Virus record (IMG/VR): IMGVR_UViG_3300045391_000992
Span: 1-64,000 of that record
Direction: 5' to 3' (one strand)
DNA from: a virus
Length of the DNA stretch: 64,000 bases
In this document: positions 1,929-21,903 of the stretch, piece after piece
Layout of the letters: the number at the start of each line of letters is the position of its first letter
How positions within the stretch are numbered: position 1 is the stretch's first letter
Translations under genes and position numbers: made by a program
The notes under the pieces: generated by a model
Told to the model about the DNA's origin: nothing
Databases searched by the model: none
The model's input: the letters and a program-made list of their open reading frames with translations, nothing else

Positions 1929-2225
1929 TCAGTTGTTGGCGCGGAGTTGTTTGTACTTGCGTTCGCATGCCTTCTCGGCTTCGGCTTGCGTGTCGTATTG
2001 GCGGTGCTTTTCGCCGGGTCTGGGATTCTCGCAGGGCGTTGACGAGACGGATTTGCCAGACGGGTGTCGCGGTTGATACGTCGCGGCCCATGTACCGTGC
2101 AGCGTATCGTATGACACGACGAAGTTCCAATCGCCCGCCGCACAAGCATACATGCGCATAGGCGGCGTACCCGGTAACATTTGCGCGAATAGCCGCTCGC
2201 CCGCTTCGTGTCGCCTGAACCTCAT
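1929..2225 (-). CDS. hypothetical protein (98 aa)
   Basis: ATG at 2223-2225 forms an ATGA overlap with the polymerase stop. The ORF-track start at 2240 is less likely. Confidence 0.5.
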   Translation of the reverse strand: MRFRRHEAGERLFAQMLPGTPPMRMYACAAGDWNFVVSYDTLHGTWAATYQPRHPSGKSVSSTPCENPRPGEKHRQYDTQAEAEKACERKYKQLRANN

Positions 2226-8071: not shown

Positions 8072-8962
8072 CTAGAGGTCGATGCCCTTGAGCTTGCCAA
8101 GGTCCTTGAGCACCCTGAGCGTGTGACGGAACTCGGCGCGAACGTTCGAGACCGTGACCTTGGAGACCGGCGCCCCGCCCTTGCCCAGCTTCTTGATCAG
8201 GGCATCGACGGTGATCTCCGGGTCTTCGACGATCGCGGTCTTGATCGCGACCTTGACGCCGGACGGCTTGGCTTCGACCTTGGCGGCCTTCTTCTTGGCC
8301 GGCTTCTCGTCGTCATCGTCGTCCTCGGCCGGTTTGGCCTTCTTCTTTTTCTTGGCCGGCTTCTCGTCCTCCTCGTCTTCGTCGGCCTCGTCTTCGTCGT
8401 CATCGTCGGCGGGCTTGGCCTTTTTCTTTTTCTTGGCCGGGGCCTCGTCCTCGTCGTCGTCGTCGTCTTCGTCTGCCGCCGGCTTGGCCTTTTTCTTTTT
8501 CTTGGGGGCCTCGTCCTCGTCCTCGTCATCCTCCGACTCGTCGTCGTCATCGGCGGCGGGCTTGGCCTTTTTCTTTTTCTTGGCCGGCTTCTCCTCCTCG
8601 TCTTCCTCGTCTTCGTCGGACTCGTCGTCCTCCGACTCGTCATCCTCCGACTCGTCAGCCTCGTCCTCGTCCTCGTCCTCGGCCGGCTTGGCCTTCTTCT
8701 TCTTGGCCGGCTTCTCGTCGTCCTCGTCCTTCGGCACGGAGCCGACGTCAGGGAACTCCGGCACGCGCTTCTTGGCCTTGACCGCTTTGATCGCGGCATT
8801 GACCCAGTCCTGCGCTTCCTCGCTGAGCTTGTCCCACTGCGGGTCCTTGAAGGTGTTGACCTTCTCGACCACGGCGGTCAGGAAGTCCTGACGACCCTCG
8901 TACTCGTCGGGGTCGACCTTCGTGGCCTTGACGAACTCAGCTTGCAGTTTCGACTTTGGCAT
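8072..8962 (-). CDS. acidic/lysine-rich tandem-repeat protein with small globular N- and C-terminal domains
   Basis: AGGAG 7 nt upstream of the ATG. Central ~160 aa consists of [D/E]8-20 blocks alternating with (K)PAKKKKKAKPA. Has its own terminator. Confidence 0.8.
   Translation of the reverse strand: MPKSKLQAEFVKATKVDPDEYEGRQDFLTAVVEKVNTFKDPQWDKLSEEAQDWVNAAIKAVKAKKRVPEFPDVGSVPKDEDDEKPAKKKKAKPAEDEDEDEADESEDDESEDDESDEDEEDEEEKPAKKKKKAKPAADDDDESEDDEDEDEAPKKKKKAKPAADEDDDDDEDEAPAKKKKKAKPADDDDEDEADEDEEDEKPAKKKKKAKPAEDDDDDEKPAKKKAAKVEAKPSGVKVAIKTAIVEDPEITVDALIKKLGKGGAPVSKVTVSNVRAEFRHTLRVLKDLGKLKGIDL
8257..8740 (-). repeat. in-frame tandem coding repeats (about 6 units, variable length)
   Basis: The DNA repeats gcctt(t)ttc(t)ttttcttggc(c)gg plus GAC/GAG runs. 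Protein units are DEDEDE..PAKKKKKAKPA. Confidence 0.7.
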
Positions 8963-9536: not shown

Positions 9537-10088
9537 TTATTCATACTGCGGGTGCAATCGTGCTCCGGCCAGATACTGCACAAGCGCAGTGTGAATGTTG
9601 CGCTTGGCGGGATCGAGGCCTGCGAAACGGCACAGGCGTTCATTCGTCGTTTCGCGGGTGTGATCAAGGCGGAGACGGTAGGGGCCGTTGCTTTCGATCA
9701 TGCGAGTCAGCACCCGCATGAGCGCAGGCGGCAACTGCTTGATGACGAACGCGAGGTCGGGGTCGGAGGTCGGGTCCTCGCCCTCGAGCATGGCTTCCAT
9801 TGACGTGTCGAGATCAGCCTCGGCGACGAGTTCGAGCCGGCTGCGCTTCTTCGATAGGTCGTGGATGTGATTGGTGAAGGCAGTTTTGAAAAGCGCCATG
9901 CGGTGCTTTTGCTCTGTCACGTTCGGGTATCGATTGCACACTCGCACCCAAATCATGAAGCCGTCCTGCATAAGGTCGGCCAAATCGATATGGCTAGAGA
10001 CTCGCCATATATTCTCGCGTGCTGTTTTGAAAATCCAACCGCGGACTCCCTGATCCAAGTTTGTTTCCCCAGACATTCCCATTCCCAT
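9537..10088 (-). CDS. sigma-70-family (ECF-like) RNA polymerase sigma factor
   Basis: Region-2-like DLMQDGFMIWVRVCNRY..FKTAFTNHIHDLSKKRSR. C-terminal region-4-like HTH LPPALMRVL..TNERLCRFAGLD. Three candidate ATGs at 10074-10088. Confidence 0.5.
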   Translation of the reverse strand: MGMGMSGETNLDQGVRGWIFKTARENIWRVSSHIDLADLMQDGFMIWVRVCNRYPNVTEQKHRMALFKTAFTNHIHDLSKKRSRLELVAEADLDTSMEAMLEGEDPTSDPDLAFVIKQLPPALMRVLTRMIESNGPYRLRLDHTRETTNERLCRFAGLDPAKRNIHTALVQYLAGARLHPQYE

Positions 10089-11401: not shown

Positions 11402-12199
11402 TCATGCCACACCCCCGATCATTGGCTTAGGCTCAGCACCGATCTGCGTGTCAAGCGACACATGCTTACCGGCGCGGTCACCGTCAAGCGCGCCTTCGTG
11501 CGACGTGTGCTTGCCCTTGTTCGGCCTGACCATGAGGTCAGCGTGGTTCTTCGACATGTAGTCGCTTACCTCCGCGCTCAGCTTGGTGTACAGGGCAGGC
11601 ACGTTCGATTTGACGAGCAGACCCACCGGCGTTGACGTTTGATCGTGGTAACGCTCCCAGAGACGGTTCTTGATCCGCACAGCACAGCCATATCGGAACG
11701 CATGCTCATATGCCTGCGCCGTGACGACCTCGCCTTCCACGCGAACCCGCGCGCCGTTCTTCTTGACCCACACTCGGCGCCCCTCCTTTGCGAGGCGTTC
11801 GACCGTGTCGACCAGGTACACAAACATCTCCTTGGCCACCACGACGTTGTGTGGCAGGCCGATGAAGTTATGCTTGTCGCCGCGAATGTAAGGCCGCTTG
11901 CGTTGCGGGGCCTCAAACCGCACGTGCTGCCAGTAGTAGTCGCAGAAGTACAATCGCGCACAAGCCAGCGCGAGATCGCGTCGCCAAGGGTTTGAACTCG
12001 AGGTCAGCAGATCGCCGTCCTCGATTACCTTACCCGTCGAGTCACGTTGCTCAACGTCATCAATCGATAGATTGAATTGCAGGAGTAGCTCCTGCACCTT
12101 GTTCGCAGCAATCGCTGACTCATTCTCGTTCGCGTTGCCCCGCGACATTGCGAGGAGTGCGCGAATACGTTTCAGTGTTGCTTCACTCAGATCCGCCAT
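11402..12199 (-). CDS. DUF2786-family phage protein
   Basis: N-terminus LKRIRALLAMSRGNANENESAIAANKVQELLLQF is the typical DUF2786 helix pair. Start at MADLSEA. Confidence 0.55.
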   Translation of the reverse strand: MADLSEATLKRIRALLAMSRGNANENESAIAANKVQELLLQFNLSIDDVEQRDSTGKVIEDGDLLTSSSNPWRRDLALACARLYFCDYYWQHVRFEAPQRKRPYIRGDKHNFIGLPHNVVVAKEMFVYLVDTVERLAKEGRRVWVKKNGARVRVEGEVVTAQAYEHAFRYGCAVRIKNRLWERYHDQTSTPVGLLVKSNVPALYTKLSAEVSDYMSKNHADLMVRPNKGKHTSHEGALDGDRAGKHVSLDTQIGAEPKPMIGGVA

Positions 12200-12444
12200 T
12201 TGTCGATACTCCAACTCTGATCATACGCTTTATCTACTGACTCGTTGACGGCCTCGGCAGTGCCGGGGACGGAGTAATCGGGGACCCAATTGCCGGACGG
12301 CGATCGCTTGTAGGCGACCCCGTTGATCGTACAATGAGTCATAACGTCGGGAGGGGTCTCACGCCCCGGCCGCCCATCACAATCCAATGGGCAGGTCGGC
12401 CACGTGCAGTGATGACCCCCGCGGTAGCAGGGGATCACACTCAT
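12187..12444 (-). CDS. hypothetical Cys-rich protein (85 aa)
   Basis: ATGA overlap with the upstream stop at 12441-12444. Confidence 0.5.
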   Translation of the reverse strand: MSVIPCYRGGHHCTWPTCPLDCDGRPGRETPPDVMTHCTINGVAYKRSPSGNWVPDYSVPGTAEAVNESVDKAYDQSWSIDKWRI

Positions 12445-13403
12445 TTCTTCGCGCTCTCCAATGCAATGTGCAGAGCGCGACGTTTGATATTGGCTTGGTT
12501 ACCCAGCCACGCGTTCTTCAAAGCAGTGTCGCGCGAGCGACCCTGCTCGTGATCGACGACATAGGTCACCGCGTTGACGGCGCCCCACCACGTTCCCTTT
12601 GCAGACGGGAGCATTGCCCCCGGTGCGTGCTCCAGTGCCGCCTTGTATTTCGGCAGGGCCGCAGGAGTGCGCGCGGCGTCGGGGCTCTTCTTGAGCACGT
12701 CAAGGAAGAACTTCTCGGTTTGCTCCTTGGTGATCTTCGCTTTCGCGAGCACCGCGGCCGCTTCCTTGAACTCTCCCGCCTGTTGCGTGATCAGGCCCAG
12801 CACCCGTTTGGCCTCTTCCTTCTCGACCTCGAAGTTCTTGGTGTGCGGCATGCGGAATGCATTACCACGCCCCTTGAGGTTCGCGCCGAGCGCCATGCTC
12901 AACGTATTCCAGCACACGACCCGAACGTTCGTATACTGCATGATCAGGGCCTTGCCGTGTTCGAACGGGCTGCACAACAGAAGGTAGTTGCGCATTTCGT
13001 CCTTCTTGCCCGTGCCGATCGCGAAGTCCTGACCGACGACGCGAGCCAAGGCCCACACATACTTGCCTTCCCAGAGCGAGCCGGCCGTCTCCATTTGCAT
13101 CTTCGCCGCAGCGACGAAGTCGTGGAAGAATTCGAAGACCTGCTTCGTCTGCACCGGCTTGTAGACCGAGCCGACGATGGACAACAGCTTGTCGTCGCTG
13201 TCCCGCACGAGCGCGAACTTGTTCTTGATCGCGATCTGCTTCTTCTGCTCGTCAGTGAAGTAGACCTGACGCTTCGACACGGTGTAGACTTGACCGGCCT
13301 CCTTCCGCATTTGCTCGGCGCTGAGCTTGTGCGAAACGGGGTTGCCAAGACCATGCCACGGAACCTGTCCGGCGTAGGCCATCTTCTCAACTGCACTAGT
13401 CAT
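12441..13403 (-). CDS. DUF932-family phage/plasmid protein
   Basis: MAYAGQVPWHGLG..ALVRDSD..LSIVGSVYKPVQ.. pattern. Start set to ATG 13401-13403 from the conserved GGAG-N7-ATG spacing of repeat R1. Confidence 0.55.
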   Translation of the reverse strand: MTSAVEKMAYAGQVPWHGLGNPVSHKLSAEQMRKEAGQVYTVSKRQVYFTDEQKKQIAIKNKFALVRDSDDKLLSIVGSVYKPVQTKQVFEFFHDFVAAAKMQMETAGSLWEGKYVWALARVVGQDFAIGTGKKDEMRNYLLLCSPFEHGKALIMQYTNVRVVCWNTLSMALGANLKGRGNAFRMPHTKNFEVEKEEAKRVLGLITQQAGEFKEAAAVLAKAKITKEQTEKFFLDVLKKSPDAARTPAALPKYKAALEHAPGAMLPSAKGTWWGAVNAVTYVVDHEQGRSRDTALKNAWLGNQANIKRRALHIALESAKK

Positions 13404-13482
13404 TTCCATACTCCATTTGGTTTGTCATCATCAGTGCAGGAGTAACCAGCTCCTGCAGACGGGCTTGGTAGCCCGTTTCGAC
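13404..13482 (-). repeat. structured intergenic element R1 (two hairpins + TGATGATGACA + SD)
   Basis: GTCGAAAC / ACGGGC-TACCAA-GCCCGT / GTCTG / TGCAGGAG-CTGGTTA-CTCCTGCA / CTGATGATGACAAACCAAATGGAG. Confidence 0.85.
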
Positions 13483-13913
13483 TATTCGTGCATTGCGTTT
13501 ATGCGCCGCGCTTCTTTGATGCGACGTTCGATCGATCGCTTTAAGACTCCGGGGTCGGAGTCAGGCATCAGGTTCAGGCTCTTGCCGTTGAGATAGGCCT
13601 CATAGGGTTGTCGCAAGCCTGGTCGCCTGACGGAGTAACGTCCGACCTTGTCAACATCGGTGTGCCACACGCTGCCCGTCTTGTCCCATCGCACGATCAC
13701 GGGGTCGGGTTCACATGAGCCGATGTTCTCGGTCGGGCCCAAGGGCCGTTCACCGTCAAGATACCTGTTCTCGATATCGATCAGCATATTGACGAGATCA
13801 CCCGCGCGACCCAAAGTTGCCGTGCTGCTGGCCTTGATCAGGTCAACGACCTCGATCGACAATTTGCGCAACTCATTGAATTGCTCGACCGTGATCGATA
13901 CTGCTTTCGTCAT
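13482..13913 (-). CDS. hypothetical protein (143 aa)
   Basis: Preceded by R2 with GGAG-N7-ATG. The stop TAG overlaps the first base of R1. Confidence 0.65.
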   Translation of the reverse strand: MTKAVSITVEQFNELRKLSIEVVDLIKASSTATLGRAGDLVNMLIDIENRYLDGERPLGPTENIGSCEPDPVIVRWDKTGSVWHTDVDKVGRYSVRRPGLRQPYEAYLNGKSLNLMPDSDPGVLKRSIERRIKEARRINAMHE

Positions 13914-13997
13914 GTTCGTTCTCCATTTGGCTTGTCATCATCAGTGACGCGGGAGCCACCCAACGTCAGACGGGAGCACGCGTGCTCCCGTTTCGAC
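13914..13997 (-). repeat. structured intergenic element R2
   Basis: Same architecture as R1. Hairpin 1 is ACGGGAGCAC/GTGCTCCCGT. Confidence 0.85.
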
Positions 13998-14005
13998 CGC
14001 AGAGA

Positions 14006-14194
14006 CTAATCGTCGTCGATTGGTTCATCGGCGTCGTAGTTCGCCTTCGTCAGAACCTCGGGACGATACGTCGCCATCTTCGCGTCGTGGCATGTTGGGC
14101 AGGTACGACACAAGGGGATGCCCCTTGCGTCGCTCTGCCAGGTCGAGGCCAAGCCCGAGCCACATGGGCAGGGCCTCGAGTCGTAGCGGCCCAT
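14006..14194 (-). CDS. small zinc-binding protein with SEC-C-like CPCGSG motif (62 aa)
   Basis: Start moved to MGRYDSRPCPCGSG. Also carries CRTCPTCH. Confidence 0.45.
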   Translation of the reverse strand: MGRYDSRPCPCGSGLASTWQSDARGIPLCRTCPTCHDAKMATYRPEVLTKANYDADEPIDDD

Positions 14195-14195
14195 A

Positions 14196-14564
14196 TTAAG
14201 CCGCCTCTTGCTTGCGCGGGTCAAGCTCCAAACCGATCTCCCACTTCTTGATAAGCTTGTCCATCAGCTTGTCGTATTGACGGTCGAGCCACGCCTGTTC
14301 CTCGGGCGTCGGCTTGATACCGACATGTGACCACTTCTTGACCACGTTGCCGATCGTCGTCAGCACCTGCGGGAACGTCATGCGTCCCTTACCTTCATGC
14401 AGCACGGTGACTGTGTCATCGACCATGGCGCCCACGATCACGAGTCGGGTCTTTTTGTCCTGACCCCATGACGTGACGATAATCAACTCACACTCCCCGT
14501 CATTGCCGGGCAGGTGGAGAGAGTAGCCATTGTCGCGCAGATGCTTCGCTTTGAACTTGATCAT
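14196..14564 (-). CDS. hypothetical protein (122 aa)
   Basis: Start moved to MIKFKAKHL (ATG 14562-14564), which follows the conserved AAGGAACGAAC of R3. Confidence 0.6.
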   Translation of the reverse strand: MIKFKAKHLRDNGYSLHLPGNDGECELIIVTSWGQDKKTRLVIVGAMVDDTVTVLHEGKGRMTFPQVLTTIGNVVKKWSHVGIKPTPEEQAWLDRQYDKLMDKLIKKWEIGLELDPRKQEAA

Positions 14565-14648
14565 GTTCGTTCCTTCTTTCACTTTGGTTTGTCATCATCA
14601 GTGCAGGAGTAACCACCTACCTGCAGACGGCCCGTAGGCCGTTTCGAC
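14565..14648 (-). repeat. structured intergenic element R3
   Basis: Hairpin 1 is ACGGCC-TACG-GGCCGT. Hairpin 2 is TGCAGG..CCTGCA. Confidence 0.85.
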
Positions 14649-14782
14649 TAAAAGAACTGCACGTAATCGCCATCAGTGAGGAAGCGGTACATTGCGTTGT
14701 GCTCCTCAGTGTAATGAAGGACGCGCGTCAACGGCTCGCCATCACCCCACCTGCGAAAATAAACTATGATAACCGTGGGCAT
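14648..14782 (-). CDS. hypothetical small protein (44 aa)
   Basis: MPTVIIVYFRRWGDGEPL.. The ATG overlaps the upstream stop by 1 nt. The stop TAG overlaps the first base of R3. Confidence 0.35.
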   Translation of the reverse strand: MPTVIIVYFRRWGDGEPLTRVLHYTEEHNAMYRFLTDGDYVQFF

Positions 14783-15387
14783 CACAGCTTCTCCCGTTTG
14801 GACTTCGCCTTCGGCGCGGCCTTGGGGATCGCGACGAGAAAGCGATTGATCACACATTCTTCCTGCGGACCCTTGGGCCGCTCCTTGACGTATCGAATGA
14901 TACATTGCTCGGGCCCAGCCTCGATTACCTTGGCCGCGCTGTTCGCAATGAATGCATCGTGGACGAGATCGCCCTTGCTGAACGTCGGGGGCGGTCCCCC
15001 GGGCTTGTAGTGCGAGGGCACGACGGCGAAACGGCCATCGGACTCGATCACGTGGAATGCATGTGACCGCATGCCGGTGCGGGTGCACATTGCTTCGTGC
15101 GCCCGATCGGCCGCGGCCCGTGACGTATACTTGAATGGATACTGTTCGTCGTCGGGTGTGACGACGCGCGTTTTGGTTTCAGGCTTGGGGGCCTTATCCT
15201 TGTTGGGCTTCGTCGTGCCCTTGAGCCACATGCTCGACCACGATCGAACTGTGCCTTCCTTGATGCCGACATCCTTCCGAGCCGCATACTTAAACGCGGC
15301 CTTTAAGCCCGCGTCGCCTCCGCCAGCCTTGCGGAACACGTCGTAGATCGCAGCCTTGCGGCTGCCTTCCTTGTATGGGTTACTCAC
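14782..15387 (-). CDS. hypothetical protein; N-terminal domain paralogous to the plus-strand H1-like protein; C-terminus KSKREKL
   Basis: Probable GTG start at 15385-15387, preceded by GAAAGG. NPYKEGSRKAAIYDVF..GTVRSWSSMW aligns with HQYKD..KVHEVF..STARTWCSSW of 19921-20217. Confidence 0.5.
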   Translation of the reverse strand: MSNPYKEGSRKAAIYDVFRKAGGGDAGLKAAFKYAARKDVGIKEGTVRSWSSMWLKGTTKPNKDKAPKPETKTRVVTPDDEQYPFKYTSRAAADRAHEAMCTRTGMRSHAFHVIESDGRFAVVPSHYKPGGPPPTFSKGDLVHDAFIANSAAKVIEAGPEQCIIRYVKERPKGPQEECVINRFLVAIPKAAPKAKSKREKL

Positions 15388-15388
15388 T

Positions 15389-15838
15389 TCAAAGCCTTTC
15401 ACGTTTACGCGACAGTCGCTCACGCGTTCGTCGCTTGGGTGTGCGCATTGTGTTGATGAAAGGAGCGAGGGGTTGGTTGTGAACGCCAATACCCCTGCAC
15501 CATGCATCGAGTAGTGATTGTGCGGCGTCCGCTGTTGCGTCATTGACGGGGACCCATTTGCGATCCTCGTTTTGATACGATCGACGCGGGAGTATCAGAG
15601 TCCCGCTCGTCGCAGACGCGCAATACATGATCGGACGCTGCTGCTGGTTGAACATGTGAATGAACACCGCGAGTGCCTGCGGGTACGTTCGATAGACTAG
15701 AGTGCTATTGAACTCCCCGACACGCGTCCCGACGGTGCACACAGTGAACGTGCCGCCCTTCTGGGCCGCATTGAACACCCGACGCTGATACTCCGCGTCA
15801 GATATCAAGCCGTCATCGTCAAACCAGCTATTGTGCAT
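15389..15838 (-). CDS. hypothetical protein ending RKRERL (149 aa)
   Basis: The ORF-track N-terminal extension looks non-coding. Start at MHNSWFDDDG (or at M 15856). No clear SD. Confidence 0.45.
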   Translation of the reverse strand: MHNSWFDDDGLISDAEYQRRVFNAAQKGGTFTVCTVGTRVGEFNSTLVYRTYPQALAVFIHMFNQQQRPIMYCASATSGTLILPRRSYQNEDRKWVPVNDATADAAQSLLDAWCRGIGVHNQPLAPFINTMRTPKRRTRERLSRKRERL

Positions 15839-16148
15839 ATCGCAACAAACGAGCATCGGCGTCTTGCATTTGCTCGATGTCCTCGGCCTCCTTCTCGTCA
15901 AGATAAGTGTGAACCCACTCGACGGGCACGGAGTAGATACAATTGCCCGTGTCGTCAAAGCCCTTGCTGCGTCCGTCGCCGACTTGCACGACGCCCGGGT
16001 ATTGCTCCATCGAGTAGCAGGCTGGGATGAACACATACTTGCCGACGTGCAGCAAGATATGGAACGGCCCGCCCTCCCAGATCCAACCGTGATCGGGGTG
16101 TTTGATCGCGACGAAGCAATGCACATTGGCATTATATTCGTTGGTCAT
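15828..16148 (-). CDS. hypothetical protein (106 aa)
   Basis: Start at ATG 16146-16148 (MTNEYNANVH), immediately after the R4 SD. Confidence 0.6.
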   Translation of the reverse strand: MTNEYNANVHCFVAIKHPDHGWIWEGGPFHILLHVGKYVFIPACYSMEQYPGVVQVGDGRSKGFDDTGNCIYSVPVEWVHTYLDEKEAEDIEQMQDADARLLRYAQ

Positions 16149-16224
16149 GTTTCGTCTCCATTGGCTTGTCATCATCAGTGTGCCGAGAGCCACTCGACAC
16201 AGACGGCCCGTAGGCCGTTTCGAC
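16149..16224 (-). repeat. structured intergenic element R4
   Basis: Hairpin 1 is ACGGCC-TACG-GGCCGT. Hairpin 2 is TGTGTCGAG..CTCGGCACA, containing one G-U pair. Confidence 0.85.
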
Positions 16225-16225
16225 T

Positions 16226-16456
16226 TTATTGGAACGCTTGATCAATTATGAACGCACCGGCAGGGAGTCGCTTGCGGCGTGCCCATTTGAGATAGGCCGC
16301 CCGGGCTTGCTCTTCCGTTGCGTGCTTGCCCTTGATCGGCCAATGGCCTTCATTGGGGATGTATATCGACCACTCACGGGGTTTTGGTTTGGCCATCGTC
16401 CCGGGGTGGTAGCCTGCGAGCTTGCGACGATTGCGGAGTATCTCTGCATTACGCAT
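16226..16456 (-). CDS. hypothetical basic protein (76 aa)
   Basis: Start at MRNAEILRNRRK. Overlaps the upstream stop by 8 nt. Confidence 0.45.
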   Translation of the reverse strand: MRNAEILRNRRKLAGYHPGTMAKPKPREWSIYIPNEGHWPIKGKHATEEQARAAYLKWARRKRLPAGAFIIDQAFQ

Positions 16457-16661
16457 TGTTGAGCTCCTCGCACTTCGCCGCGATTGCAGCAACCGACGCC
16501 TCGGTCGCGATCACCTTGAGCTTCGTGCCCTTGACGAAAGAGCCTGACTCTTTCATGTCGCGCATCTCTTGCTCGGCGACCTCACGATCGTAGTCCCCGA
16601 ATTGCGGGGCCCACGTCGAGTTGGGCAGCTTCTCAATCACGCTGTAGTATTTGCGTGTCAT
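16449..16661 (-). CDS. hypothetical protein (70 aa)
   Basis: Start at MTRKYYSVIEK, directly after the R5 SD. Confidence 0.55.
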   Translation of the reverse strand: MTRKYYSVIEKLPNSTWAPQFGDYDREVAEQEMRDMKESGSFVKGTKLKVIATEASVAAIAAKCEELNNA

Positions 16662-16739
16662 GTTCGTTCTCCATTTGTGACCTGTCATCATCAGCGCAAC
16701 GGGGTCAATCGTTGCAGACGGCCCGTAGGCCGTTTCGAC
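16662..16739 (-). repeat. structured intergenic element R5
   Basis: Hairpin 1 is ACGGCC-TACG-GGCCGT. Hairpin 2 is GCAACG..CGTTGC. Confidence 0.85.
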
Positions 16740-17152
16740 TATTCCTTCCAACCACGCACCCAAATGCAAAACTTGCCGCGATTAAGCTGCACAGCGCCCA
16801 TGTCGTCGCCGTCGCCAATCGTGAAAAGGTAGCCTTCGCAGGGGAGCCCGTCTTGCTCCCAACGCGTGAACTCCTCGAGACAGTCGGTGTAGTCGCCGAG
16901 CTTGTCGAGCGTGAGCACGTCGGGCACCTTGATCGAAAGCTCGAAGCGAATGCCCTTCGTGGCTTCCATCAATTCGACGAACTCGACATTGAGCTCAGCA
17001 GGGTTGTCCTCGCCGAGCACGCCCTTGACGATCGGAAAGAACTCATGCTCGATGAACCGGCGTATACGTTGCACCTGATCAAGAGCTTGCTTCATTTGAT
17101 CGCCAATCGGGATCACCTTCATATTGCCCGAGAGCTTCAAAACGTCAGTCAT
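16739..17152 (-). CDS. hypothetical protein (137 aa)
   Basis: Start follows the R6 SD. The stop TAG overlaps the first base of R5. Confidence 0.65.
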   Translation of the reverse strand: MTDVLKLSGNMKVIPIGDQMKQALDQVQRIRRFIEHEFFPIVKGVLGEDNPAELNVEFVELMEATKGIRFELSIKVPDVLTLDKLGDYTDCLEEFTRWEQDGLPCEGYLFTIGDGDDMGAVQLNRGKFCIWVRGWKE

Positions 17153-17233
17153 GTTTCATCTCCATTTGGTTTGTCATCATCAGTGACGCGGGGACCACCC
17201 AACGTCAGACGGGCTTTAGGAGCCCGTTTCGAC
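17153..17233 (-). repeat. structured intergenic element R6
   Basis: Hairpin 1 is ACGGGC-TCCTAAA-GCCCGT. Hairpin 2 is TGACG..CGTCA. Confidence 0.85.
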
Positions 17234-17395
17234 AATCTCTTGCTTCAAGATCTCCGACGGCACGTCGCCATGGGCAACCTGACGTTGCGCAATCTGCCAC
17301 GCGATGAAGTTCGCGTACTTCGTGCGACGTTCGCGCGGGCCGCCGTGAAGCTTGATCACCGACGCGTCGATCTTCGCAATTGAATTATCACACAT
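17216..17395 (-). CDS. hypothetical protein (59 aa) whose stop lies in the loop of R6 hairpin 1
   Basis: My translation MCDNSIAKIDASVIKLHGGPRERRTKYANFIAWQIAQRQVAHGDVPSEILKQEIVETGS. ATG at 17393-17395 follows the R7 SD. Below the ORF-track cutoff. Confidence 0.45.
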   Translation of the reverse strand: MCDNSIAKIDASVIKLHGGPRERRTKYANFIAWQIAQRQVAHGDVPSEILKQEIVETGS

Positions 17396-17475
17396 GTTCG
17401 TTCTCCATTGTTGGGCTTGTCATCATCAGTGACGCGAGAGCCATTCGCGTCAGACGGGCCGTGGCCCGTTTCGAC
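17396..17475 (-). repeat. structured intergenic element R7
   Basis: Hairpin 1 is ACGGGCC-AC-GGCCCGT. Hairpin 2 is TGACGCGA..TCGCGTCA. Confidence 0.85.
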
Positions 17476-17478
17476 TCT

Positions 17479-17682
17479 TTATGATTGTGCAGCGATTATG
17501 TCATTGATCACGAAGCCGTCCGCGATCACAGCCACACGATAGTGAGTGTAGGTGTCGGTCTCGACAGTGAACAACACAACCTGGTTAGCTCCGTGTGCCA
17601 TCATTTCCTCAACAGTCAATGCCCCCGCATTATGTCGCCTTTGCAAAAGATTAGCGATTGCTCCGAGGTCAAGCTCGCTCAT
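17479..17682 (-). CDS. hypothetical protein (67 aa), first gene of the small-gene operon
   Basis: Preceded by the degenerate element R8 (..CTGATGATGACAGCCACGGAGTAATCGAACATG). Confidence 0.55.
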   Translation of the reverse strand: MSELDLGAIANLLQRRHNAGALTVEEMMAHGANQVVLFTVETDTYTHYRVAVIADGFVINDIIAAQS

Positions 17683-17787
17683 GTTCGATTACTCCGTGGC
17701 TGTCATCATCAGTCGCATGCCGCCACACATGCGAGACCAATCACCCGTTGTCATTACGATGCCGACGCGTCAGTGGTTGGTTTCGAT
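17683..17787 (-). repeat. degenerate first copy (R8) of the structured element
   Basis: Retains ATCGAAAC, a CGCATG..CATGCG hairpin, CTGATGATGACA and GGAG-N7-ATG. The hairpin-1 region is expanded and diverged. Confidence 0.6.
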
Positions 17788-18020
17788 ATGGAGGGAAACA
17801 AACATGGATCAGGGAGTGTCGCGGAGATCGCGTGTGGACCGCGAGCTCGGCGTTTACCTCGACTGCCCACGTCATTTGCGACGCGCGAGGTCTCTGCCTG
17901 ATCAGCCATGCACGTCGTCTCGACGTTCACTAGAGGGGCTGCAACCGGGTCGTTGGGTCGGTCCCCTTAATCGATCGTCGGGGGCCTTGGGGCCACATGC
18001 GAGCGTCGATTACAGGGCCT

Positions 18021-18048
18021 ATTATAAACCCCTTGTTTTATAGGTCAA
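18021..18048 (-). promoter_or_regulatory. near-consensus sigma-70 promoter facing the small-gene operon
   Basis: Minus strand reads TTGACC-N16-TATAAT, in the AT-rich part of a 480-bp gap. Confidence 0.65.
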
Positions 18049-18086
18049 ACCCAATCGGCAGTGTCTCAAGCCCTATAAAACAAGGG
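18030..18086. promoter_or_regulatory. 15-bp perfect inverted repeat overlapping the promoter (candidate operator)
   Basis: CCCTTGTTTTATAGG (18030-18044) and CCTATAAAACAAGGG (18072-18086), separated by a 27-nt spacer. Confidence 0.55.
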
Positions 18087-18160
18087 CTTTCAAGCCATGT
18101 CCCCGTTATCCACACTCCCGAAATCGTTAAAATTGTATCATTTCCAGGAAATCCGAATTT

Positions 18161-19774
18161 TCAGGCCGCGAGACGCTCCCGTCGTCGTCGCGTTCGGAAC
18201 ACGGCCTCGGCCCCAGTGTTGAGTATGGCCTTCCACAGACTGCGCCCCTCAGCGTGAAAGCGCAGAATGCTTTCATCGACCGTGCCGCGAACGATCAGGT
18301 CATAGAGTATGACGGTGCGATGCAGCGAGTACTGGCGATCGAAACGCTTCTCGGTTTGTTTGCGCAGTATGGCCCCGACCGGCGACTCGTAGTAGATACC
18401 GTACTTCGCATTCTGCAAATTCAAACCGTACCCGCCCGCAGAATTTGACAACACGAGCGCTTGCACCTTGGGGTCATGTTTGAACGCGTGGCGTGCTGCG
18501 TCGCTCTTCTTCGTCGTGCCGTTGATCGCGACGTGACCGATGCCCAACTCCTTGAGCTTGGCGCATATAACGCGCGACGAATGCTGGAACTCGTGGAACA
18601 CGATGAACTTGTGTTCGGGCTTGAATGTCTGAACGAGCGACTCGAGGAGATCGAGCTTGGGGTTTGTTTCGAACTCGAACTTCACGCGGTCGCCTGTCTC
18701 GTCATCCTTGAAGCCGATGAAGCCGGAACTGATTTGACGCAATCGCAGGAACGCGTTCTTCAGAGCTTGGAAGTCGCCCTTGGCCTGCTTCATTGCTTCC
18801 TTTGCGCGCTCGATGTATTGATCGGCATTCTCAGGGAGTACGGCCTCCTTCTTCAATCGGGTCAAGTGTGGCATCACGGTTTCGTCGGCGGGGTACGCGA
18901 TCGATATGTTATCGAGTCGCGCGCTGATCGCGCGCTTGCCCGCCTTCGTCAGCTTATATTCCTTGCCGCCCCAGTACAATTCCTTCTCCTCAAAGAAGGC
19001 CGCACGAAACAGGCCGAGCGTTTCGCCGAGTGTCTCGCCACGATCGACAAGGAAGGCTTGGGCCCACACGTCTTCCACGTCACGCCCGAACGGGGTGGCC
19101 GTCAGTATGAAGAAGCAGTTCGCGCTCTTACTCAATTGATTGCAAAGACGCCACGGGAGCGCAGCCTTGTTTTTGACGTAGGTCGACTCGTCAAGGTACA
19201 CGCCGTCGAACCGTTTCATGAGTTCGCGGATCTTGCGCTTGTTCGGGACAAGCCTGTTGATCTCCACACTCTTGCCCTTGCGTTTGCGCTTGACCTTCTT
19301 GAGGTCGCAGCACATGCGCACGAAGCCCATATAGGTTTCCACGAACGCGTCGGCTTCGGTGTTGTCCTTGAGCGCCTGCCACTTCGACTCCGTACTGCCG
19401 TGCAACACCACGCATTGCATCGATGGCGTATGCTTCTGGAAGCCCTCTTCCAGCCACTCCCATTTGTTGATCTTGTTCGGGACGAGGATCAGGTTGCATT
19501 TTGTATCACCCGCGCGCTTGAAATACTTCATGAGCGAGAGTGACAGGAACGTCTTGCCCGTGCCGGTCTCGTTGAAGTATGCGAACCGACGCTTACGGGC
19601 CCCGATCACGAAGCAGACACGTTGGTCCGATCGGAGCTTGTTCCATATGGGCGGGCGACATTCGAGTTTCCGCATCCGACTATCAATGTCGTCCTCGGAT
19701 AGGTTTTTCCACAGGGAGTAATCGCGGTGGGGCCTCGCATGAAAAGCCTTTACTGCGCGGGGGGATAGGTTCAT
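18161..19774 (-). CDS. SNF2/DEAD-like superfamily-2 helicase
   Basis: GTGKT (motif I), YLDESTY (motif II), ILTATPF (motif III), LSNSAGGYGLNLQ (motif V), QTEKRFDRQ (motif VI). Confidence 0.8.
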   Translation of the reverse strand: MNLSPRAVKAFHARPHRDYSLWKNLSEDDIDSRMRKLECRPPIWNKLRSDQRVCFVIGARKRRFAYFNETGTGKTFLSLSLMKYFKRAGDTKCNLILVPNKINKWEWLEEGFQKHTPSMQCVVLHGSTESKWQALKDNTEADAFVETYMGFVRMCCDLKKVKRKRKGKSVEINRLVPNKRKIRELMKRFDGVYLDESTYVKNKAALPWRLCNQLSKSANCFFILTATPFGRDVEDVWAQAFLVDRGETLGETLGLFRAAFFEEKELYWGGKEYKLTKAGKRAISARLDNISIAYPADETVMPHLTRLKKEAVLPENADQYIERAKEAMKQAKGDFQALKNAFLRLRQISSGFIGFKDDETGDRVKFEFETNPKLDLLESLVQTFKPEHKFIVFHEFQHSSRVICAKLKELGIGHVAINGTTKKSDAARHAFKHDPKVQALVLSNSAGGYGLNLQNAKYGIYYESPVGAILRKQTEKRFDRQYSLHRTVILYDLIVRGTVDESILRFHAEGRSLWKAILNTGAEAVFRTRRRRERLAA

Positions 19775-19840
19775 TGGCTTGTCAGTTCCTGTATCTCAAA
19801 CCCGTTAATCGGAGGCCCTTTGACGATCATACTATGGGGA

Positions 19841-19870
19841 TTGTGCGCGCGGCGGAGTTGGCCCTATAAT
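19841..19870 (+). promoter_or_regulatory. candidate sigma-70 promoter for the lone plus-strand gene
   Basis: TTGTGC-N18-TATAAT. The -10 is perfect and the -35 is weak. Confidence 0.4.
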
Positions 19871-19877
19871 GCCCCGG

Positions 19878-19891
19878 CCGCAATATTGCGG
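19878..19891. promoter_or_regulatory. 14-bp perfect palindrome (candidate operator)
   Basis: CCGCAATATTGCGG begins 8 nt after the TATAAT box. Confidence 0.45.
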
Positions 19892-19920
19892 TTTGTTCAA
19901 CTCAGAGTAAGGTGGTTATC

Positions 19921-20217
19921 ATGTCACATCAGTATAAGGATCATCGTCCCGATTCCGCCAAGGGCAAGGTCCACGAAGTGTTCGATACGAAGGGCAAGGA
20001 CGCCGCGATCAAGAAAGCGGTCGCGCTCGATATCGCGGAGTCGACGGCCCGCACGTGGTGCTCGTCGTGGAAGAACGGCGGCAAGGCCAAGAAGGCGAAG
20101 GCTGCGAAAGCTGCTCCTGCAAAGAAGCCGGCTGCGAAGAAGGCGGCTGCGAAGAAGGCCCCCGCGAAGAAGGCGAAGGCCAAGCGCGAGTCGCTCGAGG
20201 CCTCAGCGGCAGCCTGA
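19921..20217 (+). CDS. histone H1-like Lys/Ala/Pro-rich DNA-binding protein (98 aa)
   Basis: AAGGTGG 6 nt upstream of ATG 19921. Tail is KAKKAKAAKAAPAKKPAAKKAAAKKAPAKKAKAKRESLE. Followed by a strong terminator. Confidence 0.7.
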   Translation: MSHQYKDHRPDSAKGKVHEVFDTKGKDAAIKKAVALDIAESTARTWCSSWKNGGKAKKAKAAKAAPAKKPAAKKAAAKKAPAKKAKAKRESLEASAAA

Positions 20218-20247
20218 TCGTCAACGCGGCTACTTCAACTACAAACA

Positions 20248-20273
20248 CCCGGGGGTGCGGCCCCCGGGTTTTT
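20248..20273. terminator. bidirectional rho-independent terminator between convergent genes
   Basis: CCCGGGGG-TGCGG-CCCCCGGG, followed by TTTTTATTT on the plus strand and TGTTTGT on the minus strand. Confidence 0.8.
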
Positions 20274-20279
20274 ATTTGC

Positions 20280-20480
20280 CTAATCGTCATCGTCAAATAA
20301 ATCGAGACGTTCACGCTTGCGCTTGCGTGGCGGCTCAGGCTCGGGCAATCGCTCCCTGATGCGCCCGGGCGGGTCAGGGTGATATCGCAGAGGGAACACC
20401 CAACCGCACGGGCATACGCCCGGGTGCTTGGGGCTATAAGTCTTGTCGGGGAAGCCACACCAGAGCCTATTCGTCATCAT
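20280..20480 (-). CDS. hypothetical protein (66 aa) with RKRKRERL..DDDD tail
   Basis: Start at MMTNRLWCGF, overlapping the helicase stop. Confidence 0.45.
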   Translation of the reverse strand: MMTNRLWCGFPDKTYSPKHPGVCPCGWVFPLRYHPDPPGRIRERLPEPEPPRKRKRERLDLFDDDD

Positions 20481-21903
20481 CGTCGTCCCCTGCTTCGTCC
20501 TCTGTGCCCGCAAAGTCTTCGAATGCCTGCTTATACTCGCGATGCATGTACATTGAGTCGAGTGCGAATTGCCCGACCGCGTAGGCTTGGGTGACGACGA
20601 TTTGAAAACGATCCTTGTCTGATCGGTTCTTGCTGACGAACATGCGGCCCAGCCCGTGCTCGAACTCGAGGTCGGTGCAAGAGTACGTCACGACCGCGTC
20701 GCACGTGCCCATGATCGACCAGTCTTCCGCAAGGTGCACCCCCTTGGCCATCACTGCGAGCTCGCCAGCCTTTGACAATTGATGGGCCGTCACACCCGCG
20801 GCGTTGCGTTCGATCATGAGACCGCGCAGATCCTCGCAGTTCATGCTCATGCTGCCGCGAACGTTCTTGATGTCTTTCTTCAACAGGCCGAGGTAGTCGA
20901 CTATGATCACGTCGGGCACGAAGCCCTCGGTCTGCTCGAGCATGTCAAGGTATGCGCGAATGTGACTGACCGTCCACTCGTTCGGCTTGAAGCGTTTGAC
21001 GACAAGGTTCTCAGACTTCTTGCCGAATGACACCATGTGCTGTTCGAGTTCGAGGCTGGCCAAATCGTCCTCGAGCGAGAACATCGGCTTGTAGTCGCTG
21101 CGGCTCAGACCCGTGAACTCCTCGAGATCGCGTTCAAACTCCGTGATCTCGACTGGCTCGCGACGCTTCGACACGCTGAAGATCGACTGGTAATAGCGAC
21201 CAATCACCTCCTCTTCATCGATTTCCCCCGACAAGTGCGCGACCTTCTTGCGGTCCATCAGCGCGTGCTTGCCGATGTTCACAAGGAACCACGTCTTGCC
21301 ACGACCCGCGGCGCCACCGAACAGCATGAGCTTGCCGCGGGCGGGTACAAAGTGTCGCCTGTCGAGCTCAGCGACTCCCGTGCGGAACTCCGCCTGCAAT
21401 TGTTGGAGTCGTGCGAGGACAGGGGCGATCTCGTTCAGTCGCATGCCCGGTTGGAAATCGATCTCGCGCGTTCGCAGGAGTTTGTCCCATAGCTCCTCGA
21501 TCTCAGGCAGAGCCATTTGCTGGATGTTGTTGATCTTCTCTGCCGACTCGACGATCGCGCTTTTAAAACGCTGCACGCGGTGTAGGTCACGGAGTTGATC
21601 CATGACGTACTTGGTATTGAGGTTGTCGGACAGCGCGATCATGTTTCGCAGGAGTCTGCGGATCGTGTTGCCACGTCGATTGTGCTTGTCCTCGAGAATG
21701 TCGCCGAACATGTCGGCGGTGTGATCGCCCGGGGCCGCACCATACTTGCGCCAATAGTCGACGGCGCGTTCCGCAATCATACGGTAGTCGCCTTCAAGCA
21801 ACTGCACGTTGAGCATATTCGAAACGACCTTACCCTGCTCGTTGTTGTAACAGAGCAGGGTGATGACGTTCTCCTGTAGCGCGTGGTTCATCGTGTCGGT
21901 CAT
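20467..21903 (-). CDS. DnaB-like replicative helicase
   Basis: Start at MTDTMNHAL (ATG 21901-21903). DnaB-type N-terminal domain, Walker A GGAAGRGKT, and RecA-like C-terminal domain. Confidence 0.7.
   Translation of the reverse strand: MTDTMNHALQENVITLLCYNNEQGKVVSNMLNVQLLEGDYRMIAERAVDYWRKYGAAPGDHTADMFGDILEDKHNRRGNTIRRLLRNMIALSDNLNTKYVMDQLRDLHRVQRFKSAIVESAEKINNIQQMALPEIEELWDKLLRTREIDFQPGMRLNEIAPVLARLQQLQAEFRTGVAELDRRHFVPARGKLMLFGGAAGRGKTWFLVNIGKHALMDRKKVAHLSGEIDEEEVIGRYYQSIFSVSKRREPVEITEFERDLEEFTGLSRSDYKPMFSLEDDLASLELEQHMVSFGKKSENLVVKRFKPNEWTVSHIRAYLDMLEQTEGFVPDVIIVDYLGLLKKDIKNVRGSMSMNCEDLRGLMIERNAAGVTAHQLSKAGELAVMAKGVHLAEDWSIMGTCDAVVTYSCTDLEFEHGLGRMFVSKNRSDKDRFQIVVTQAYAVGQFALDSMYMHREYKQAFEDFAGTEDEAGDDDDDE

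Follow-up and report, generated by a model that had tools for sequence, protein, structure and literature searches.

The question raised by the virus record IMGVR_UViG_3300045391_000992 is what a two-hairpin element does when it is repeated eight times between the small genes of a single operon. We analyzed positions 1 to 64,000 of this record (64 kb, here called the window), which represent the whole or much of the genome of a tailed phage, with terminase, portal, and replication genes. All genes identified (large terminase, portal, DnaB-like helicase, SNF2 helicase, DUF932 protein, and family A DNA polymerase) are encoded on the minus strand. On the same strand, eight similar elements, from 17788 to 13416, separate the small genes of an operon located between the SNF2 helicase gene (19774-18161) and the DUF932 gene (13403-12441), at a density of eight in 4.4 kb. 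Here we establish the family identity, structure, and placement of these elements, and we propose, with a probability of roughly 85%, that each one is a type II hammerhead self-cleaving ribozyme whose predicted cleavage would cut the operon transcript.

Match of the eight copies to the hammerhead core

The exact sequence CTGATGATGACA occurs eight times in the window, between 13423 and 17712 and always on the minus strand, against a chance expectation of 0.55 and with none of 100 shuffles reaching eight. This agrees with the eight coding-strand copies reported by a first-pass annotation, which a model had made from the sequence. We number the copies HH1 to HH8, 5′ to 3′ on the minus strand. A second sequence, GTCGAAACGG, is exact in seven of the eight, and HH1 has AUCGAAACC instead. 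A direct-repeat finder sorts the elements into families at 65-91% identity.

All eight copies match the Rfam family RF02276 (Hammerhead_II), which has a gathering score of 37 bits. A scan of the window at the gathering threshold gave seven matches, at 38.4-44.8 bits, and a permissive scan added HH7. A ninth copy was found in the 64 kb neither by the permissive scan nor by a covariance model of the subfamily (described below), so that the late region indeed holds nothing similar, as had been noted. Rfam families other than the hammerhead were likewise absent from the permissive scan of the whole window; a scan restricted to the region added one chance-level match to P24, whose 20.9 bits fall far below its gathering score of 100.

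The match covers the catalytic core. CUGAUGA, the C3-A9 core strand, is exact in 8/8 copies, and all eight also have G12A13A14, the A15.1-U16.1 closing pair of stem III, and C17 of the GUC triplet. Read as RNA, the parts of the element correspond to the hammerhead as follows.

GUC: 3′ strand of stem II
GAA: G12-A14
"Hairpin 1": stem III, closed by A15.1-U16.1
C after CCGU: C17, the cleavage site
"Hairpin 2": stem I
CUGAUGA: C3-A9
(U)GAC: 5′ strand of stem II

Stems I and III are capped by loops and stem II is open, which is the type II topology, and the UGG loop and GCCA tail agree with the RF02276 consensus. By a parser count that includes the closing A-U pair, stem III has 5-9 bp; its loop is UACG in HH4, HH5, and HH6, confirming the three copies counted before, and stem I has 6-9 bp, the length given earlier for hairpin 2. 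Stem II has 3 bp (2 bp in HH1), within the range reported by Perreault et al. (2011, PMC3088659), where stem II often has just two base pairs.

This assignment changes how the element is to be understood. The sequence UGAUGAUGA, in which three consecutive stop codons had been noted, is the invariant core, an additional U, and the first part of stem II; it is not a purpose-built triple stop. The first-pass annotation had recommended an Rfam search, naming a match to a described RNA family as an outcome that would count against its reading; the search returned exactly such a family. What stands is a selected RNA structure. The claim of novelty fails because RF02276 matches and because such clustering in phage operons has been in the literature since 2011 (PMC3088659). 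For annotation, a supposed new element gives way to precise predicted cleavage sites.

Helices, pseudoknot, and covariation

In loop I, UGGYU pairs with AACCA, AGCCA, GGUCA, or GCCAC just 3′ of GAC. The TGGYT motif seen earlier in the hairpin-2 loop is one of the two strands of this pairing. In it, loop I and the 3′ tail form the pseudoknot characteristic of type II hammerheads, which Perreault et al. (2011, PMC3088659) defined as a trait of this type and showed to be required for fast cleavage.

We aligned 16 copies (A1) drawn from the window and from the closest relative found, IMGVR_UViG_3300043313_000271 (L119). Over four helices including the pseudoknot, 96.3% of the cells of A1 are paired, compared with 29-50% when partners are slid by 1-3 columns; both sides have changed in 14 of the 22 pairs, and 0/500 shuffles reached the covariation score. 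The pseudoknot helix (helix 4) is 92% paired, with compensatory changes in three pairs. A subfamily covariance model made from A1, using the nested helices only, was searched against 100 loci and gave 199 matches, from which a wider alignment of 134 distinct subfamily sequences was obtained. There, 95.2% of the cells are paired versus 24-55% in the slid controls, and 17/22 pairs show compensatory changes. Although the pseudoknot is not encoded in the model, its helix is 88.6% paired in the 134 sequences, with compensatory changes in four of five pairs. An alignment-free comparison points the same way: loop I forms at least 5 Watson-Crick pairs with its own 3′ tail in 82/165 nonredundant elements, compared with about 12/165 when tails are swapped. 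Covariation thus supports all four helices, and the G-U pairs in the stems are compatible with RNA of the minus (coding) strand only. These results bear out the earlier view that compensatory stem changes beside invariant flanks reflect an RNA structure under selection.

The predicted folds largely follow the same structure. The three-way junction is the minimum-energy fold in HH2, HH3, HH5, and HH8, and in HH6 with a shifted register of stem I; fold z-scores of these five copies range from -1.95 to -3.7. HH4 and HH7 fold with the expected stem III, and the nested-only algorithm swaps stem II or stem I for the pseudoknot pairing.

Several observations weigh against the proposal that every copy is a ribozyme cutting the transcript. 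HH7 (13925-13998) scores 32.9 bits with RF02276 (E = 8e-4), under the cutoff of 37; its core is complete, and it reaches 73.8 bits with the subfamily covariance model. The hammerhead fold of HH1 is not its minimum-energy fold (z = +0.9), and its stem II has 2 bp with a neighboring A-C mismatch, while a large insertion interrupts its stem III; the orthologue of HH1 in L119 has kept stems I and III by compensatory changes. In all eight copies, A9 and G10.1 are separated by an extra U, which must bulge out for the G10.1-C11.1 pair beside the core to form; without the bulge there would be a U-C mismatch. A Watson-Crick pair N10.1-N11.1 directly beside the core is a filter that Perreault et al. (PMC3088659) apply. 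Finally, the purpose of hammerhead cleavage in phage operons is called undefined in a 2019 review (PMC6765202).

With regard to the extra base, the Rfam alignment handles the UG after A9 as an insertion. Among 72 by-catch elements of phage arrays, that is, elements not picked by our own search pattern, the base after A9 is U in 52, absent in 15, C in 3, and A in 1. An extra base here is evidently tolerated, because most members of the phage subfamily carry one and it is the majority state in the collected phage arrays. A literature phrase search for an extra base between A9 and G10.1 found nothing; the CChMVd hammerhead reportedly carries an additional A there.

The same structural data bear on two roles proposed by the first-pass annotation. 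In one, the hairpins are substrates that RNase III or RNase E of the host would cut; in the other, a phage RNA-binding regulator or antiterminator would bind to them. The early RNase III sites of T7 are intercistronic hairpins at which polycistronic RNA is cut, leaving a protective 3′ hairpin on the upstream mRNAs, and the window elements resemble them in their intercistronic position and in conserving the shape of the hairpin and not its sequence. However, RNase III substrates have about 20 bp, and the enzyme that cuts the T7 sites is a host protein acting on long imperfect double-stranded RNA. A site of the T7 type was considered and rejected, since a hairpin of about 20 bp with an internal loop would be expected and the stems here have only 5-9 bp. 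Moreover, the invariant single-stranded blocks are exactly the hammerhead core, and the pseudoknot and the 3-bp closing helix would have no role. We therefore consider both of these roles highly improbable. The idea of sites that cut a polycistronic phage RNA survives in its essential part, with the agent changed: by the core match, it would be the RNA itself and not RNase III or E that acts as the enzyme, with 5′-OH and 2′,3′-cyclic-phosphate ends predicted. A protein-binding role is not needed, as the invariant flanks are the catalytic core.

Gene cassettes, placement, and relatives

The hammerhead copies divide the operon into cassettes of one or more open reading frames (ORFs). They are listed here 5′ to 3′ on the minus strand, where all of them lie.

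17694..17788, minus: HH1, 43.4 bits; predicted cut 17735/17734; type II, in the 5′ leader; diverges in starting with AUC and not GUC, in a 34-nt stem III insertion, and in a stem II of 2 bp (AUC/GAC with an A-C mismatch)
17479..17682, minus: cassette A, a 67-aa ORF without a family match
17410..17476, minus: HH2, 41.2 bits; predicted cut 17453/17452
17216..17395, minus: cassette B, a 59-aa ORF; its TAA (17218-17216) falls within the HH3 stem III loop, 8 nt 5′ of the predicted cut
17165..17234, minus: HH3, 43.1 bits; predicted cut 17208/17207; z = -3.6
16739..17152, minus: cassette C, a 137-aa ORF; HH4 begins with the G of its TAG
16676..16740, minus: HH4, 38.4 bits; predicted cut 16717/16716; pseudoknot UGACC/GGUCA
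16226..16661, minus: cassette D-E, overlapping 70- and 76-aa ORFs without an intervening ribozyme
16160..16225, minus: HH5, 40.5 bits; predicted cut 16202/16201; pseudoknot UGGCU/AGCCA
14648..16148, minus: cassette F-G-H-I, 106-, 149-, 201-, and 44-aa ORFs, overlapping or abutting
14583..14649, minus: HH6, 43.7 bits; predicted cut 14626/14625
14006..14564, minus: cassette J-K, 122- and 62-aa ORFs
13925..13998, minus: HH7, 32.9 bits; predicted cut 13969/13968; long 9-bp stem III
13482..13913, minus: cassette L, a 143-aa ORF; HH8 shares the G of its TAG
13416..13483, minus: HH8, 44.8 bits; predicted cut 13458/13457; z = -3.7; precedes the DUF932 gene
12441..13403, minus: DUF932 gene (PF06067, E = 2e-45), the first gene past the array and, apart from one incompletely fetched contig (see below), conserved in the related arrays

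For every upstream ORF, the stop codon lies 5′ of the predicted cut. This includes the 59-aa ORF, which does terminate inside the hairpin-1 loop, as had been observed. A TAG whose G is also part of the element occurs in three copies (HH4, HH6, and HH8), one fewer than had been counted. Ten proteins of the array were scanned against Pfam and PHROG, and they gave no Pfam match and no meaningful PHROG match, so that these scans provide no link to antidefense or any other role for the small genes.

Among 214 distinct elements, an upstream ORF has its stop ending between -12 and +3 nt from the ribozyme start in 71%, versus 8% at random positions, and an ATG opening an ORF lies 10-35 nt past stem II in 79%, versus 14% at random positions, with a median of 21 nt. 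A Shine-Dalgarno-like motif stands between stem II and the ATG in 150/182. Family-wide, ORF ends show a secondary peak 16-21 nt inside the ribozyme.

Such geometry could mean that cleavage is regulated by competition with ribosomes. A terminating ribosome, or a 30S subunit at the Shine-Dalgarno motif, would block stem II and the pseudoknot, and processing would then report the translation status of the neighboring genes. Packing is very tight: a few nucleotides at most separate the stop codon from the 3′ strand of stem II, or the two overlap, and in the window copies there are about 2-3 nt from the end of the pseudoknot strand to the Shine-Dalgarno motif; the ORF that ends in a stem III loop and the secondary peak of the family fit as well. 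However, the argument is one of geometry, and compact phage genomes are tightly packed throughout. Pseudoknotted type II hammerheads, moreover, are fast in vitro (PMC3088659), and they may cut before ribosomes arrive. We regard this form of regulation as rather unlikely.

The placement data also bear on whether the elements are repeats that are selfish or in decay, for instance mobile elements that carry ribozymes or producers of circular RNA, with no role in expression of the operon. Hammerheads elsewhere are part of retrozymes, satellites, and repeats (PMC6765202), and spliced or circular products were raised as a formal possibility by Perreault et al. (PMC3088659), who looked for them and found none. 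Against this explanation, every catalytic nucleotide is kept in 8/8 copies, orthologous copies maintain their pairing through compensatory changes, the copies occur on the coding strand only, and they keep a precise register to stop codons, Shine-Dalgarno motifs, and start codons. Repeats without a function in the operon thus appear very improbable.

Beyond the window, we found the exact subtype pattern GTCGAAAC...GTCTG...CTGATGATGAC in at least 118 IMG/VR stretches and in 24 stretches of species-representative bacterial genomes, across many phyla. L119 has an SNF2 helicase 86-88% identical to that of the window, flanking genes 77-88% identical, and ten hammerheads at the same locus. In this phage lineage the locus keeps its array down to protein identities of about 45-50%; the relatives have 10-14 ribozymes, and their small genes mostly differ from those of the window. 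The more distant relatives with the layout DnaB, SNF2, array, DUF932 are as follows, with ribozymes given as simple parser counts.

IMGVR_UViG_3300019889_000009: 12 ribozymes
IMGVR_UViG_3300050821_005831: 14 ribozymes, contig positions ~24.7-37.5 kb
3300046517_000866: 10 ribozymes

Their SNF2 helicases are 48-60% identical to that of the window where the match is full-length. The relative with 14 ribozymes is placed by a 46% identical DUF932 match and a 45-residue helicase fragment at the edge of the locus, and 3300046517_000866 has no DUF932 match in the fetched part of its contig. The arrays of 14 and 12 type II hammerheads span about 7-10 kb, larger than that of the window, and some of their copies have C as the extra base after A9 or C at core position N7. 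With 10-14 in its relatives, the eight ribozymes of the window are therefore not exceptional in the lineage.

Close cultured relatives were not found by megablast of 20 kb against GenBank phages. The best match of the helicase in cultured phages is 32% identical (Vibrio and Edwardsiella phages), and the replication modules of these phages contain no convincing hammerhead, the best scoring 16.5 bits. No tractable model phage emerged from these searches. BLAST of one ribozyme against GenBank phages gave one weak match, the element being too short and variable for BLAST.

The comparison with L119 raises the possibility that repeats consisting of a hammerhead plus a ribosome binding site (RBS) act mainly, or in addition, as portable recombination homology, with ribozyme-bounded cassettes being gained, lost, and shuffled and ribozyme activity keeping the resulting arrangements expressible. 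This explanation is compatible with a cutting role, and we take it as a distinct possibility, short of even odds. The copies are direct repeats, with about 65-91% identity over about 66 nt, and their stem III and stem I types assort independently. L119 shares only some cassettes with the window, and in a different order: cassette L is bounded by ribozymes in both but follows J-K in the window and precedes G-H in L119, and cassette B is free-standing in the window but lies inside the D′ block in L119. Breakpoints of homology between the two are at ribozymes or gene ends, and more distant relatives keep the array with few small genes in common. However, hypervariable accessory-gene regions shuffle in many phages without such repeats, and no junction was caught inside a ribozyme. 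Strict conservation of all catalytic nucleotides, together with covariation in the pseudoknot, also indicates selection on catalysis and not on mere identity. We looked for the stem I type tracking the downstream gene, or the stem III type the upstream gene, between the window and L119; cassette L was suggestive only, and no general rule emerged.

The earlier suggestion of linkers for cassette shuffling receives circumstantial support from the comparison with L119. Tentatively, the module of hammerhead, pseudoknot, and RBS might be a natural cassette junction, which would serve both as an insulator and as about 85 nt of repeat homology for the exchange, duplication, and loss of cassettes. If true, this would explain how an array of 8-14 ribozymes persists at one locus amid gene turnover.

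Predicted processing of the transcript and its setting

Returning to the proposal that the elements are self-cleaving ribozymes, the operon would be transcribed on the minus strand. Transcription would probably start from a sigma-70-like promoter at 18048-18021, and read-through from the helicase gene may contribute. Each ribozyme would fold during transcription, stems III and I forming as hairpins and the 2-3 bp stem II closing the junction, and the pseudoknot of 4-5 bp that loop I forms with the 3′ tail would dock stem I against stem II. Self-cleavage would follow C17 of the GUC triplet at the eight predicted sites, by the internal transesterification established for the hammerhead family, which yields a 2′,3′-cyclic phosphate and a 5′-OH. 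A transcript of about 5.5 kb would be divided into nine pieces: the leader, A, B, C, D-E, F-G-H-I, J-K, L, and DUF932 with the genes downstream. The products should part at once because only the 2-3 bp of stem II bridge them. Each upstream piece would keep its own stop codon and end in the stem III hairpin with a 2′,3′-cyclic phosphate, and each downstream piece would start at the stem I hairpin itself, with a 5′-OH, ahead of a Shine-Dalgarno context that hardly varies (AAUGGAGAACGAACAUG in several copies). Such ends would be poor substrates for exonucleases and for RNases that depend on a 5′-monophosphate, and the stability and translation of a cassette would be uncoupled from those of its neighbors. 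Actual cleavage at the array and its physiological purpose are inferred here from established hammerhead chemistry; the likely benefit would be independent stability and translation of each cassette, and stabilization of mRNA, one of the roles suggested at first, is a plausible consequence of cleavage.

Much of this was already known from 2011: the family, the pseudoknot, the clustered arrangement in phages, and the proposal of transcript processing (PMC3088659). In Perreault et al. (2011, PMC3088659), hammerhead clusters flank single genes or short gene blocks in prophages and are proposed to process long phage transcripts, and the clusters in C. scindens, A. caulinodans, and A. tumefaciens (a trio around ardA) likewise set multiple ribozymes around variable genes. 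Clustered phage hammerheads are reported there to cut in in vitro transcripts of about 2 kb, the A. tumefaciens trio also in vivo after cloning. The arrangements tested there are arrays of three, whereas the window has eight and its relatives have 10-14, and cleavage is demonstrated there but predicted from sequence in the window. The window array differs further in occupying a conserved locus, from SNF2 helicase to DUF932, in an uncultured phage lineage. D. vulgaris has three type II hammerheads in the vicinity of phage-like genes, with about 300 nt between two of them; they cleave in vivo, and their 2′,3′-cyclic-phosphate and 5′-OH ends were captured by cyPhyRNA-seq (PMC8782182). Those loci are chromosomal and prophage-like, with one to two ribozymes each, whereas the window holds a long array. 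Relative to RF02276, the window copies have the same core (CUGAUGA, GAA, A15.1-U16.1, and the GUC triplet) and the same pseudoknot between loop I and the 3′ tail, but add the U between A9 and G10.1 and, in HH1, the 34-nt stem III insertion. New here are a large clean array in an uncultured phage lineage, kept at one locus while its inner genes turn over, the quantitative rules of placement, and the common extra-U variant.

The PeSL (promoter-early stem-loop) cassettes of T4-type phages, reportedly described by Arbiol et al. in 2010, are said to bracket small variable early genes and to have been proposed to allow modular shuffling; a PeSL reportedly consists of a promoter and a terminator-like stem-loop and acts on transcription. 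In contrast, the window elements have no recurring promoter consensus and would act on RNA. RiboJ, attributed to Lou et al. in 2012, is said to be an engineered insulator derived from a plant satellite RNA hammerhead and placed just upstream of the RBS, its cleavage reportedly stripping the upstream context and leaving a 5′ hairpin; by analogy, the window elements may be its natural counterpart. An operon with eight ribozymes would be an unusually clean natural system in which to study the purpose of phage and bacterial hammerheads. The array permits the effect of cleavage on mRNA stability, translation, and stoichiometry to be tested, as well as the role of the repeats in cassette exchange.

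The candidate promoter of the operon is the following site.

18021..18048, minus: sigma-70-like promoter TTGACC-16 nt-TATAAT, 11/12 hexamer positions, ~235 nt upstream of HH1

Both of its hexamers are invariant in L119, and it is likely the start of the operon transcript. A scan for a hairpin plus T-run found no minus-strand terminator-like site between the helicase gene and HH1. As for the copies themselves, no ribozyme is among the minus-strand hairpin plus T-run sites of 11500-20500, and a promoter consensus scan gave no recurring promoter in them and one chance-level match inside the array. The earlier statement that the elements are neither terminators nor promoters accordingly holds in both scans.

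The promoter-like site is embedded in a 19-nt inverted repeat with arms at 18026-18044 and 18072-18090 and a 27-nt spacer. In L119 (~9730-9800) the arms are swapped (CCCTATAAAACAAGGG...CCTTGTTTTATAGGG compared with CCCTTGTTTTATAGGG...CCTATAAAACAAGGGG in the window) and the spacer is not inverted, so that the hairpin potential is kept. The inverted repeat at 18026-18090 could be an operator or a DNA or RNA hairpin.

From the putative transcription start to the predicted cut in HH1, the leader is about 280 nt long (17735-18013, minus). In an alignment of the leader, HH1, and the end of the helicase gene with those of L119 (A2), the mean column identity is 83%, and the leader contains a 35-nt indel. 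The leader is probably noncoding because the length of this indel is not a multiple of three. A permissive Rfam scan of the window gave no match to it, and the cut in HH1 would free it as a separate RNA.

Other features lie farther from the array. Between the DnaB-like and SNF2 helicase genes, a strong GC-rich hairpin of 9-10 bp (20247-20269) has T-runs on both strands, the one on the minus strand being weak; it is possibly a terminator or attenuator upstream of the helicase. The portal gene (59531-61777, minus; PF06381, E = 2e-99) encodes a C-terminal Acb1 anti-CBASS domain (PF23474, residues 542-686, E = 1e-28), so that a virion protein would bear an antidefense enzyme domain. At its N terminus, the family A DNA polymerase (2222-4816, minus) carries a domain belonging to the uracil-DNA glycosylase superfamily (PF03167, E = 2e-14). 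At 8261-8744, within an ORF at 8072-8962 (minus), there are dense, imperfect, GC-rich tandem repeats with a 3-nt periodicity, which probably encode a low-complexity tract of charged residues.

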